From: Vermamoeba vermiformis
Lineage: Eukaryota
Assembly: GCA_045837725.1 (NCBI GenBank)
Contig: JBEWZL010000284.1
Coordinates: 1-64,000 of the forward strand
Length of the DNA stretch: 64,000 nucleotides
Direction: 5' to 3'
Every line of letters begins with the position of its first letter. The stretch's first letter is position 1. Both the position numbers and the translations under genes were made by a program. A model generated the notes under the pieces. That model worked only from the letters and a program-made list of their open reading frames with translations. It was not told the DNA's origin and did no database searches. Positions 25,008 to 30,100 of this stretch are shown here, piece after piece.

Positions 25008-27038
25008 ATGGACCAGATTAATAAGCTTATGGCGCGTCATGAAAAATTCGTAATAGCACAAATGAAAGAGTTAAATTTGAAAATTCCCATGAAAGCCACC
25101 AAATATTTTCAACGCGCCATCAAAGCTAGCAAATCGCTAGAATGCTTGGAAATTAGTGAACAAGAATTTCATATGAACGAATGGGAATTCATCTCTCTTG
25201 GAATCATCGGCAACGAATCCATTTCAAGATTACGATTTCATAACATGGAATTGAATGAGCGCAATATTGGATACATTACTCAAATACTGCGTCAAAATAG
25301 TCGAATAACTGCAATAAGATTCGATCAAATCATATTTGAAGGCAACACTTTTCAAATTTTGATTGAATCCATCAGATCGATGAAGAAACTTGAATCAATC
25401 GAATTCTCAACGAGCGAAATATCCGTTGAAGAAGTCCATATGCTTAAGAATGCCCTATCTGATTGCAAAAGACTCATGACAACGACATTGATTCAAGATC
25501 CAGTAAGTTCGTTCAAAAAATTGATCAATCTCAATTGAATCTCGGCTCTAATTATAGCTCTATTTCAGATTTATATTACAACGAACGAATCAGACGTCAA
25601 GAAGTTTACTAAAGAGAAGAAGAAGTTCATTATCGCTGGTTTAACTGATCTTTTGATCCGATCGGATTTGCCAGCAAACGAGATCTTCAAACGAGCATTG
25701 ATAGCGACATTAACGCTATCACGAGTGCATATTTGTGCTGAAGGACTGACTACCAAGCAATGGGAGATCATTTCTGAAAGTCTGATCAAGAACCAATCCG
25801 TTACTGAACTTACAATCAAAAAAACAACTATTACAGAGCATAGCATTAAATTCATTATCAAAATAATGAAAGAAAATAAGAGAATACGAACGCTTAGAAT
25901 AGAAGAAACGAAAATTGAATCAGATCTGGTCATTGAATCCTTAGGCGAGATGATCTGCCATAACAAGAACATTCAACGGCTTACCTTTTTAGGAAATAAG
26001 GTCTCACCGGATCACATGATAGCTTTGCACGAATTTATCAAGTCAAACACGAGCATTACAGCCTTAGAATTGACTTTTTTGGAAGTCACGCCAAAATTGT
26101 CGCAAAGTTTTCAACAATTACTCCGCCAAAACAGAAAAATCTCGTCACTGAGATTGCGTCTCGGAGTTTTTCCGTGGCCGAGAACGAAGCGGTACACATT
26201 AGGAAATTTGACTAAATTGGAGGTGGATTGCGTTCAAATTGATAATTCACGCGCGCAACGGTTCTGTGAAACACTAAAAAAGAACAAAAATATTCATGAA
26301 TTGAAATTGCAGTGGTCTCTGTCAGAAGAAGATAACGAAGTGCAATTACTAGCGGATCTGTTGGACGTCAATTCAACACTGAAAAAATTGACCATTGTGG
26401 AGTACCTCGATGATGACGTGGCAGAGCGATTAATACGGTCTATGGCCTATAATAAGACCTTAAAATCACTGACACTACGAATCGATGAATTAGAGACCTT
26501 GAAGAAATTCTCAGAATTTTTGCAACAAAACGAATCCATCAGATCCATCGAACTCGACATTGACGATCAATACCTCGTTAACAATTTGCATGTTATAGCA
26601 CCACTATTAGAAAACAACAAGTCCATCACGCAACTCAGCACGCCGATCAGTTCATTTTGCATCGGAGATCTGTTCCATTCACTGAAACACAACACAACAA
26701 TCTCGTACTTGAGATTTACGACCTACAATCGATCGTTCTTGGCTAATAGACACTTGTGGCTGCCAAAACTGCGAGAATTAATGATGGTCAATAAGGCACT
26801 CAATACGATAATTTTGCCGGATCTGCCACAAGACATTGCACAAGTTTTAGAACGGAATTACTTGCGACAACAAATAGATATTGGAATTACTATGTGTGGC
26901 ATCAGAATGATAGCGCTAAGAAGTCATGTCTTCGCGGAACTGTTGCCGTTGGAGATCTGGTCGATGATTTTCAAGTTCATCACTTTTCCTGGTGTAGGTG
27001 TTGATTTCAGTTCTGAATTCAACAAAATGATTGTATAA
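25008..27038 (+). CDS. RNI-like leucine-rich-repeat protein with C-terminal F-box-like motif
   Basis: Repeats of about 28 aa of the type (L/I)xxNxSIxxLxL across two long ORFs joined by one intron near 25503-25568. C-terminus ELLPLEIWSMIFKFI. The true 5' end may include upstream exons. Confidence 0.75.
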
Positions 27039-27166
27039 TAATAATGAATACCTCTGAGATCTGGTACAAATGTAAAATAAAATAAACACCTGAATTCTCA
27101 AAAATATCTGGGCTTACAAAAATTAAGTTGTTTTTAAATAGTTTTGTCGAGGGTTAGGGTTTATTT

Positions 27167-30100
27167 TTAAACAACAGAGTACTTTCTGAACGAAGGCTTG
27201 TCGGGATGAGCATTCAAAATCGCCTCTTCTAAAATCTTCTTGATTTCAATCTTTGCCAGATCCACTGACTCGTCATCAGGACCTTCAATCAACAAATACA
27301 ACTTCTTCTCGCCAGGTGGTGCATTACGACCTGCGGGTACGAATTGACCTCTCGGCAACACATTGCAGCCTGAAAACTCTTGGATCTGCATTAGCGCGTC
27401 CTTGTTGGTCACACGCCAACGAGCAGTCTGAGGATAGTCGTTGATTTCGAACTCGGACACGACGTGCGTCTTGGCAGTCTGTATATGAAGTCATTAGGGA
27501 CATGGTTAAAAAATATTAAAGAAGGTAGATCTAGCCGTCAGAAAGCACGGATCCGCAATGCTATGAATGACTATAATGTATTATACTTACGCCACCAGAA
27601 GCCTTGGCAATCTTCTGTTGCAACTCTTCGGTCAACTTTGACGCCTTTTTCATCGCCTCGACAGTCGCAGAGCTCATGCCGCTGGCTTGTGCCTTCTCTT
27701 CGAGCAACTTCTCGTTCTTGGCTGCCAGGTTCTCAGCAGCGCGCTCTTCATCTTCCTCGTCGTCCTCACCTGCGACCTCTTCTTCGTCACTTTCAACTAC
27801 ATCTTCACCTCCGAACAACTGTGAAAAATATTGTCAGATCTAGATCCTTTCAGTTGACACGAGAATTAACAGCACTTACCATTCGCTGTAATTTTCGTTC
27901 TTGTTTCTTTTGTTCCTCTTCGGCCTCATCAAATTTGAAGCCTGAGTTCTTGACGTAACCGCTCAAGTGACGCTTGGCAGTACCTTGATGCAACTTCTCT
28001 TGGAACCGATCGTACAACTCTTTCAACTTGTCAGGGATCGTCGAATTAGCGTCCTTGAGTGCCTTGACCAAATCAGGCGAGTACTGCTCTTCAGATGGCG
28101 TAATGAACGTGATTGCCGTGCCCAAGTTGCCTGCACGACCAGTACGGCCCACACGATGCACGTAGTCTTGCAAATGGTTCGGCACTTCGTAGTTGAGCAC
28201 CAATCGGATTTGAGGCACGTCCAGACCACGTGCTGCGACTGACGTGGCCACGAGGATCTTGACTTCACCGCGTCTGAACTCTTGAATGGTCATCTCGCGG
28301 TCCACTTGTTCTTTGCCTCCGTGCAGCGACAGACACGCGTAGCCAGACTTGATAATGTCGCGGTACAACGCGTCAGTGGCCTCTTGCGTGTCCACAAAGA
28401 TCAAAATGCTGCCCTTGTCGTACCACGCGGCAATAATTTCCATCAAACGTGTCAACTTTTGATCTTCTTCGATGACTTCCACGAACTGATCGATCGTGTC
28501 TGACACGATGTTTCTGCCACGGACGGTGATTTCTAACGGATTTTTGAGCAATGAACGTGCTGCATTTTCTACGACACGTGGGAAGGTCGCTGAGAACATG
28601 ACTGTTTGTCGGTCAGGACGAATGTTGTTGATGATTTTTCTAATCTGTGGCTCAAAACCCATGTCAAACATTCGATCAGCCTCGTCCAAGACCAAATACG
28701 TCGTTCGTTTTAAATTGGTAATTCGACCTTTGTTCGCGCACAGAATGTCAATCATGCGGCCAGGAGTGCACACCACAATTTCAGCTCCGCGCTTGAGATC
28801 TCCGATCTGACTCGCAACACCTGCACCACCGTACACGGGAACGCTCTAAAAAAGAAAATACATCATTCGATATGTGACATCTAACGCGACAGTTTTGTTG
28901 GCTACATACCCTCATGCCCGTAGATTTTTTGAATTTTTTCACCTCGCCGTGGATCTGCGTTACCAGCTCACGGGTCGGGGCCATAATAATTGCCATGGGT
29001 CCATCGCCAGGCTCGAGAGGCGGTTGGTCCAGAATGTGTCTTAATAAAGGCAACAAGTAAGCTAACGTCTTTCCCGAACCTGTTTTAGCAATACCAATGA
29101 CATCTCGTCCGCTCATGATAGCGGGCAAGGCTTGAGCTTGAATCGGTGTTGGCTTTTCAAACTCGGCTTTGCGAAGCACTTCCAAGCTAAATAAGGAAAT
29201 TTCGTTAAGTACATAAACTTCCATAATAGGCAAAATAAGCATGGGCACTTACATCTTCGTGCTCAAACCACTCTGAGTGAAGTTTTTGATTGGCTTAGGA
29301 CAGTCCTTTCCCTACAAAAACAAACTTAATAAAGGTCATAAGAAATTATGTAGTATAAGTATAATTTGTTGATTAGTTTTCGAGGGTGGATCCGCTCGGG
29401 AACTTACTCTAATTTTAATGTCTTCAAGGGACTCTCTGTAAGCATTGACCTCCTCTTCAGTCATCTTGGCAATCTCGGGCACTTCAATGTAAAAGTCCTT
29501 TCTGAACGGCAAGTACTCCACTTTTGAATGATCCACTTGTTCGAGCACTTTTTTCGTGCCTCTATTCGCTGCTGCCAATCTATGGAAAATCATCGGTTAA
29601 TTTCCTCGAATTATTTGAATATTTGCAGATTTTTTTACGTACAAAGCTGCTGCGGAATCAACAGGCTTATCTTCTTCAAGTTCAGGTTTCTAAAAAAGGA
29701 AAATTAATATGGAATTTTTGCAAAGATTAGCCCTAGTATTCTACGTACTGTTTGACTTTCAACGTGAGCTTTTCTTAATGAATCGCGATTGAGTTCCTGC
29801 ACTTCGGTTGAAATTCCCGCCATGAATGCATCCAGCGGATCCACCTCTACTTCATCAGGAGCAGGAACGCTCTTTTCAGTCTGCATAGCATCGACACCGT
29901 CTTCTTGTTTAATAGCAGGTGCGTCATCGAGTTTAAAATCAATTTTTTTCTTTTCTTCTTCGACTTCACCAAACACGTTCTTCTTCTTAACAACGGGTGC
30001 GGGCACGACGGCCTTTTGTTTGACGAAGGCTAATAACTTCTCTCGTCTCTTGCGCTTCTCTTCTTCTTCGAGTTCTAACTTCTTTTTTTCTTCTTCCTCT

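Follow-up and report, generated by a model that had tools for sequence, protein, structure and literature searches.

A GATC palindrome spaced at about 143 bp in a 64-kb stretch of Vermamoeba vermiformis DNA and its possible relation to nucleosomes

Introduction

To what extent does DNA itself write the positions of its nucleosomes, and why does N6-methyladenine (6mA) at ApT steps sit in the linkers between them? These open questions are raised by positions 1 to 64,000 of contig JBEWZL010000284.1 (Vermamoeba vermiformis, assembly GCA_045837725.1, forward strand), the whole of which is hereafter called the window. An initial annotation, made by eye from the letters, had noticed that the palindrome RGATCY (R, purine; Y, pyrimidine) recurs there, often about 130–155 bp apart, and had proposed a linker, nucleosome-positioning, or methylation-target code overlaid even on coding DNA. 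In this study, we found that phasing is confined to GATC sites that have YR on one or both sides, that these sites recur with a period of about 143 bp, and that ATA/TAT-rich zones occupy the opposite phase. The pattern is a candidate for a nucleosome-scale sequence signature, in which the GATC words are possible linker targets of adenine methylation.

Data and null models

All statistics were obtained from this one 64,000-base window, one short relative contig from a metagenome (L001), and the literature. The null for RGATCY consisted of 100 dinucleotide-preserving shuffles of the window. Local composition was represented by shuffling of bases inside 10–50-bp blocks, with 800 block shuffles for the spacing, and coding DNA by 1000 synonymous-codon shuffles across 15 host open reading frames (ORFs). 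The period was fitted with a cosine statistic on GATC pair distances of 100–900 bp. The Pfam scan covered 17 ORFs of at least 150 aa and 150 of the 310 ORFs of 60–149 aa, and the gene map is accordingly partial.

Three RNA runs (X21–X23) were placed on positions 20001–40000 of the window at a depth below 1.3, with reads 95–99% alike; these runs represent a diverged strain or a close species relative to the window. The reads confirmed three or four short GT..AG introns of 55–63 nt. The window is eukaryotic, as shown by these read-confirmed spliceosomal introns, a PRP5/DDX46 helicase gene, and a Ty3/gypsy element.

Enrichment of GATC words

RGATCY occurred 153 times in the window, whereas 53.64 ± 6.98 copies were expected; the maximum among the shuffles was 74, and none of the 100 reached 153. 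The enrichment noticed by eye was thus real and stronger than had been claimed, and all of the coordinates listed in the initial annotation were RGATCY matches, with the sole exception of 56105, which is TGATCT, as had been said there. The core word GATC was present at 400 sites and was the most over-represented 4-mer both by zero-order composition (observed/expected ratio (O/E) of 1.71) and by a maximal-order Markov model (1.49). The block shuffles yielded only 221–226 ± 15 GATC. The ratio stayed well above 1 after correction for composition and, as described below, for codons, and the enrichment was not refuted. Among the other palindromic 4-mers, O/E ranged from 0.44 (CTAG) to 1.54 (TCGA), with 0.69 for CATG.

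Longer words were enriched more strongly. The top 6-mer was CAGATC/GATCTG, with 123 copies on both strands against 28.3 expected (4.35-fold), and over-representation grew with the length of the palindrome, from YRGATCYR (71 against 14.6 expected) through CRGATCYG (33 against 2.5) to CAGATCTG (13 against 0.9). The literature on CAGATCTG yielded only primers and constructs. The motif sites occupied exons, introns, and intergenic DNA.

The half-sites were unevenly distributed between the strands. On the plus strand of the window, GATCTG occurred 74 times and CAGATC 49 times, and on the sense strand of the counted ORFs (host ORFs and two DDX46 exons) the numbers were 14 and 8, respectively.

Spacing of the GATC sites

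When the distances between all pairs of GATC sites were examined, 123 pairs fell at 120–149 bp against 75.0 expected (z 5.7), and 110 pairs at 270–299 bp against 73.8 expected (z 4.2). Peaks were observed at 130–150, 265–300, and 425–465 bp (near 143, 285, and 436 bp), separated by troughs with an O/E of 0.76–0.78, and the first peak held 23–25 pairs per 5-bp bin where 12.5 were expected. The best-fitting period was 142–144 bp. None of the 800 local-composition block shuffles reached the first-peak O/E of 1.73. Furthermore, an excess of peak pairs was found in all four 16-kb quarters (61/39.1, 82/51.1, 57/27.1, and 74/51.1, observed/expected; P ≤ 0.003 each). The spacing is thus not exponential but has a peak near 143 bp with harmonics, and this result is independent of the runs that had been picked by hand. 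The order is short-range and not long-range.

Doubled sites were common, with 27 GATC pairs no more than 7 bp apart, and distances of 5 and 6 bp occurred 11 and 10 times, respectively, against about 2.5 expected.

The phasing was held by a subset of the sites. A YR flank on at least one side was carried by 215 of the 400 GATC; for these, O/E was 2.13 at the first peak, 0.44 in the trough, and 1.97 at the second peak, whereas the 185 unflanked sites were nearly flat (1.34 and 1.27). The CA, TG, and CG flanks were the most enriched and the best phased. These results indicate that the phasing belongs to GATC flanked by YR on one or both sides (YRGATC), of which RGATCY is only a subset. The motif as first defined was close, and YRGATC(YR) fits the phasing better.

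The sites and runs concerned are listed below (no strand assigned).

1–64000: whole GATC set; 400 sites, 215 of them YR-flanked; spacing near 143 bp and its multiples, with ATA/TAT zones in antiphase
26354–27847: flagged stretch; 12 RGATCY and 15 GATC
27527–27554: RGATCY pair (AGATCT, GGATCC) in a DDX46 intron of about 97 nt (about 27479–27575; limits approximate, from tblastn)
27836–27847: stacked pair AGATCTAGATCC, two sites 6 bp apart (27836/27842), in a DDX46 intron of about 58 nt (about 27819–27876)
24658–24947: phased run of three RGATCY, 146 and 138 bp apart
10686–10980: phased run 10686/10698, 10834, and 10975, over exon ends and short TA-rich introns of a plus-strand gene (by-eye reading)
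52398–52708: phased run of three RGATCY, 155 and 150 bp apart
55958–56535: phased run 55958, 56105 (TGATCT), 56236/56255, 56383, and 56530, over exons and introns of a minus-strand gene, with some sites stacked 5 bp apart
33305–33321: triple stack CGATCTGATCTGGATCC, its sites 5 and 6 bp apart, among the 27 pairs no more than 7 bp apart

The stretch flagged in the initial annotation covers the 3′ part of a leucine-rich repeat (LRR) ORF (plus strand, ending at 27038) and, across a short gap between the genes, the 3′ exons and introns of DDX46/PRP5 (minus strand), a gene with exons of about 130–970 nt. Eleven RGATCY had been counted there; each of the listed sites was correct, and the true count is 12, the copy at 27842 having been missed. 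The stacked copies reported near 33305 were found as the triple stack given above. The flagged stretch is the densest 1494-bp window, with P = 0.07 for a maximum of at least 12 under random placement, which is not significant. The phenomenon is window-wide and not local.

Opposite phase of ATA/TAT

The GATC lattice was accompanied by a second class of words. ATAT and TATA followed the period of GATC, and the O/E of ATA/TAT fell to 0.74 at the lattice distances and rose to 1.25 midway between them (z −19). TA steps were scarce within about ±20 bp of GATC and reached their maximum at 50–80 bp. Three other features were weakly in phase with GATC, namely AAAA/TTTT (1.13 in phase and 0.88 in antiphase), CpG (1.05 and 0.93), and AATC/GATT, the one-step neighbours of GATC (1.10 and 0.93).

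The antiphase, together with the spacing and the flanks, bears on an explanation that does not involve chromatin, namely a restriction-modification contest between host and viruses, e.g., host-wide GATC methylation against viral GATC nucleases. In its favour, a published study (PMC7253447) describes GATC and RGATCY methyltransferases, as well as nucleases for GATC, in giant viruses of amoebae and algae. However, the contest predicts avoidance or neutrality of the word; neither a 143-bp spacing nor a TAT antiphase nor a dependence on YR flanks would follow from it. We consider this explanation very improbable.

Overlay on coding DNA

The 15 host ORFs contained 87 GATC, against 62.7 ± 5.6 in the synonymous-codon shuffles, in which the maximum was 85 and none of 1000 reached 87. 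Synonymous codons could spell GATC at 281 positions of the host ORFs, and 84 of these positions do so. In intron-free ORFs, GATC-permissive codon pairs were realised at 48 of 127 in-phase and 28 of 120 out-of-phase positions (odds ratio 2.0; Fisher P = 0.019), and the out-of-phase rate of 23% was close to the codon-usage expectation of about 22% (62.7 of 281). The GATC–TAT antiphase was also present inside host ORFs that lack introns (at antiphase distances, 215 pairs against 151 and 179 pairs against 131; z 2.7 and 2.2), in which only 45 GATC–TAT pairs were found within 25 bp of each other as compared with 88. The suggestion that the pattern is laid over coding DNA thus received modest support: the pattern is accommodated there through synonymous codon choice, and the effect is modest.

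Ordinary sources of the pattern

Several common sources of periodicity were considered. Tandem Repeats Finder gave no unit longer than 24 bp, and the dispersed repeats were paralogous gene pieces, a low-complexity coding region, and two long terminal repeats (LTRs), none of which is a motif-bearing family. Donor-like splice sites were not periodic, and GATC density around them was flat save for a small bump at +10 to +40. As for protein repeats, the 17 GATC of the LRR ORF lay in all three frames and encoded unrelated dipeptides (DL, EI, RS, DH, PI, and others). Short, often TA-rich introns feed the TAT class, yet the antiphase persisted in intron-free host ORFs.

These observations bear on an artefactual origin of the pattern, whether from coding constraints, protein repeats, exon–intron architecture, dispersed repeats, or hand-picking. 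It is true that the initial runs were hand-picked, that the flagged stretch is no significant maximum (P = 0.07), that TA-rich short introns add to the TAT class, and that the GATC–GATC peak is not significant in long ORFs. Against this, the unbiased all-pair statistics held in each of the four quarters, neither synonymous nor local-composition shuffles gave the count or the peaks, no relation to repeats or donor sites was found, the antiphase was present inside intron-free ORFs, and GATC occurred in all frames and with various residues. The artefact is largely refuted and hardly probable at all. Enrichment, period, flank dependence, and TAT antiphase are direct observations, and so is the independence of the pattern from repeats, from splice donors, and from the local composition.

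A recent insertion and a relative

An internal contrast was provided by one element in the window.

43229–49888, minus strand: complete Ty3/gypsy LTR retrotransposon with 159-nt LTRs that are 100% identical

Its ORFs encode gag with a zinc knuckle and pol with protease, reverse transcriptase, RNase H, and integrase. Since the LTRs are 100% identical, the insertion is young, i.e., very recent. RGATCY occurred 9 times in its 6.66 kb (1.35 per kb), as compared with 2.51 per kb in the rest of the window, and 5 times in the 3.3 kb of a WNK-like ORF; the low numbers reported for both were thus confirmed. No phase relation between GATC and TAT was found in the retrotransposon (all |z| ≤ 1.4), and its phase coherence was the lowest in the window, both at low power with 33–34 GATC sites. 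The retrotransposon ORFs realised GATC at 31 of 116 permissive sites, close to the 84 of 281 in host ORFs. The element thus differs from the host in flanked sites and phasing, and not in raw GATC use.

A metagenome contig offered a comparison across species. Positions 114–1649 of L001 align to positions 27779–29324 of the window, about 1.5 kb of the DDX46 gene, with an amino-acid identity of 97%; the nucleotide identity is 84% by blastn and 82% (1275 of 1551 columns) when all of the alignment is counted. The differences at GATC were transitions (GATC against GATT, AATT, or GACC), and single GATC sites turn over. Given the numbers of sites in the two sequences (see below), GATC enrichment may be lineage-specific or recent.

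Both comparisons bear on the idea that the lattice is a non-functional by-product, in which mutation or repair differing between nucleosome-covered and free DNA would slowly create GATC and remove TA steps at one phase; the lattice would then record chromatin and have no effect of its own. The fast turnover of single sites, the transition differences from L001, the weak in-phase signal of AATC/GATT, and the lack of pattern in the young retrotransposon are all compatible with it. On the other hand, a context-specific mutational bias would have to make an 8-bp palindrome at 13–15-fold excess, together with doubled copies. In addition, the excess in ORFs sits at in-phase permissive sites while out-of-phase sites are near the codon-usage null, which fits selection as well as bias. 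We regard a by-product as quite improbable; if the lattice were only such a mutational trace, it would still be a sequence-only read-out of nucleosome spacing in a lineage that is little studied or not in culture.

A nucleosome-scale reading

The arrangement may be described as follows. TA steps are scarce in zones about 40 bp long that hold one or two YRGATC(YR), often doubled 5–6 bp apart, and these zones, with slightly more A-tracts and CpG, alternate with ATA/TAT-rich zones at a period of about 143 bp. The pattern runs across the exons, introns, and intergenic DNA of host genes, and it was not seen in the recently inserted retrotransposon. We propose that the GATC zones may be the DNA between nucleosomes, that the GATC words may be accessible sites at which an enzyme of the MT-A70/AMT1 type preferentially methylates the adenines of ApT symmetrically, and that methylation at GATC would reinforce nucleosome phasing. 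As a whole, this reading is given a little short of an even chance, and its parts differ in strength. The period of about 143 bp is probably a nucleosome repeat. If the pattern is nucleosomal in origin, a place in linkers is somewhat favoured over one at dyads, whereas methylation of GATC as a linker mark is, overall, a tentative proposal that we hold rather below an even chance.

The nucleosomal part draws on the period of 142–144 bp, which lies among the values that have been reported for the nucleosome units of protists and fungi (about 120–200 bp). The pattern combines a period with harmonics, short-range order, an extension into coding DNA, and lack of the signal in a new insertion, and in this it resembles published nucleosome-scale periodicities. 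The methylation part draws on species with AMT1. According to excerpts of one study (PMC12695648), these species methylate ApT in linkers, best in SATS and worst in TAT/WATW (S, G or C; W, A or T), and symmetric ApT 6mA of the AMT1/MTA1c type is found in ciliates, Chlamydomonas, early fungi, and many protists; the same excerpts state that ApT composition rarely mirrors the 6mA pattern across species. GATC is a palindromic ApT in a SATS context, TAT/WATW fills the opposite phase in the window, and the periodicity is of nucleosome scale in both cases. The best and worst contexts of AMT1 thus coincide with the two opposite phases of the GATC lattice, which gives indirect support to the 6mA idea. 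The window differs from the AMT1/MTA1c system in that the sequence itself is phased, in that only GATC is involved and not CATG or GATG, and in that the pattern is known here from sequence alone. In Acanthamoeba, DpnI/DpnII digestion indicated a mix of methylated and unmethylated GATC, according to excerpts of the report (PMC7253447). No MT-A70 domain was found among the scanned ORFs of the window (17 of at least 150 aa and 150 of the 310 of 60–149 aa).

Several results weigh against this reading. The A+T fraction was 0.56–0.59 in the GATC zones and 0.60–0.62 at mid-period, and the GATC zone is therefore slightly GC-richer; GC-richer DNA marks nucleosome cores and not linkers in many organisms. 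A-tracts, in turn, are usually linker-like, and they were in phase with GATC, so that the sequence clues to linker or dyad conflict. The other SATS words were not phased with GATC (CATG 1.03/1.07; GATG/CATC 1.01/1.01), and CATG was under-represented (O/E 0.69) while GATG/CATC were not enriched. Hence, while GATC as a SATS word and TAT sit in opposite phases, CATG and GATG/CATC are neither phased nor enriched, and a generic AMT1-substrate reading does not predict phasing of GATC alone. Around the GATC sites of the window, neither a clear 10-bp rotational signal nor a clear A–T or G–C skew was observed. Phase coherence at 2.5 kb reached P < 0.05 in only 10 of 50 windows, and direct GATC–GATC periodicity inside long ORFs was not significant (15 against 12.7; P = 0.29). 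The period of 143 bp is shorter than the canonical nucleosome core of 147 bp. In the relative, L001 kept 4 of 13 GATC as compared with 51% of all 4-mers, which gives no sign of constraint at the level of sites, and its aligned exons contained 7 GATC against 13 in the window, i.e., about half. Finally, the reading, which would concern specialists of chromatin and 6mA, rests on one 64-kb window.

Some of these results agree better with a nucleosomal signature without methylation. Under that explanation, the pattern would position or record nucleosomes, YRGATCYR would act through DNA mechanics or a sequence-specific chromatin protein, and the palindrome may sit at the dyad, on the two-fold axis, with the TAT zones as linkers. 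The lattice evidence for it is identical to that for the linker-methylation reading, and it accommodates a slightly GC-richer GATC zone beside AT-richer TAT zones, the membership of short TA-rich introns in the TAT class, and the lack of phasing of the other words preferred by AMT1. Species-specific signatures without DNA methylation are known in fission yeasts, as described in excerpts of PMC5088595. Two observations fit it less well. A-tracts, usually linker-like, are in phase with GATC, and a discrete word that is 5–15-fold enriched and doubled at half-turn spacing resembles a recognition site more than a bending preference. To our knowledge, no protein with YRGATCYR specificity is known. 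We consider a methylation-free signature possible but on the unlikely side.

A bolder form of the linker-methylation reading may also be stated. A dedicated palindrome, YRGATCYR, frequently present as two copies half a helical turn from each other, would label almost all of the gaps between nucleosomes in genes, also within coding DNA, and a GATC-selective adenine methyltransferase or reader would set the phase. The motif would then be a eukaryotic counterpart of the cyanobacterial palindrome HIP1 (see below) and a genetically encoded template for an epigenetic mark. This form seems unlikely.

If one sharp word resembling a restriction site does mark the nucleosome period, nucleosome phasing would be readable from sequence alone, could be cut with enzymes such as DpnI, DpnII, or those of the BstYI type, and could be rewritten by synonymous recoding. 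Cause and effect among sequence, 6mA, and nucleosome position would then become directly testable, and chromatin would constrain codon choice at the level of a specific word. The phased GATC gives a testable guess at the location of adenine methylation.

Comparison with known systems

Sequence periodicities tied to the nucleosome unit have been reported by Chen et al. in 2008 for Trichomonas vaginalis (120.9 nt, matched to a micrococcal nuclease ladder), Giardia (about 132 nt), and Yarrowia (about 156 nt) (PMC2577358). Their carrier is a sinusoid in GC content at third codon positions and in dinucleotide content, anchored at the starts of coding sequences (PMC2577358). The pattern of the window shares with them a period in the range of short protist and fungal units, visibility in raw sequence over several units, reach into coding DNA through codon choice, and fading with distance. 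In contrast, its carrier is the discrete palindrome YRGATC with antiphase ATA/TAT, and A+T varies by only about 2–4 points. What is new as compared with the known periodicities is the carrier, which is a sharply defined palindrome where theirs is a smooth wave in composition.

Nucleosomal signatures of Schizosaccharomyces and Saccharomyces were reportedly described by Quintales et al. in 2015. For the same two genera, Gonzalez et al. in 2016 reported species-specific signatures overlaid on ORFs via synonymous codons, with a short dyad spacing of 153 bp in S. pombe (PMC5088595). A pattern carried on ORFs by synonymous codons and a short spacing are common to these yeasts and the window. In the yeasts, the signature consists of degenerate base preferences that depend on position and are asymmetric in A/T about the dyad (PMC5088595), whereas no A–T skew was found in the window and its carrier is a sharp motif of 6–8 bp.

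A closer likeness in the word itself is offered by HIP1, the highly iterated palindrome GCGATCGC of cyanobacteria, which is described as quasi-periodic and recognised by DNA methylases (10.64898/2026.06.24.733823). Both are octameric palindromes with a GATC core and are many-fold over-represented inside and outside genes. However, HIP1 is bacterial, where there are no nucleosomes, while the window is eukaryotic, with CRGATCYG flanks and nucleosome-sized spacing. HIP1 is an analogue and not a family that includes the motif of the window.

In Mamiellales and other picoeukaryotes, Huff and Zilberman in 2014 reportedly described 5-methylcytosine (5mC) that is restricted to linkers, together with very short nucleosome repeats. 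The shared idea is that a mark limited to linker DNA assists in phasing tightly packed nucleosomes; the mark there, unlike 6mA, is cytosine methylation at CpG in GC-rich genomes. No GATC lattice was found in metagenome loci (unnamed) of the GC classes typical of such picoeukaryote algae. When loci of other eukaryotes from metagenomes, many of them near-duplicates, were pooled in five GC classes and treated by the identical procedure, no comparable peaks were observed. In literature coverage outside which subscription journals and supplements lay, no phased GATC word had been reported in a eukaryote.

Other features of the window

The nearest named homologues of the DDX46 gene were about 62–66% identical and belonged to plants, green algae, and one contig of an insect assembly. 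At the read-confirmed intron 32400–32461, whose last letters are ...CGCAG and whose downstream exon opens with ATC, the acceptor site forms part of a CAGATC word that extends into the exon. The two long plus-strand ORFs of 24990–27038, which share one frame, are split by a single TGA at 25536–25538, on the 5′ side of the LRR region; this codon could mean an unrecognised intron, a pseudogene lesion, or a true gene start downstream.

Among the other words of the window, CTAG (O/E 0.44), CCGG (0.48), and TATA (0.63) were strongly scarce. Words containing CpG were not depleted (CGCG 1.49, GCGC 1.53, and TCGA 1.54), which argues against heavy CpG methylation decay.

A paralogous gene was present in three tandem copies at 1–5300, about 2.4–2.7 kb apart and 66–78% identical, and in further inverted copies near 12.5 kb and 17.1 kb (12400–13000 and 17000–17250); no Pfam domain was found in the ORFs of these copies. 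The region 20645–22814 is a low-complexity coding region rich in GAA, AAG, and CGC (repeats of the Glu/Lys/Arg type). Inside it, an RNA-read joint that runs back by 925 (22058 to 21134) was found in all three runs, suggesting a difference in copy number or arrangement between strains.

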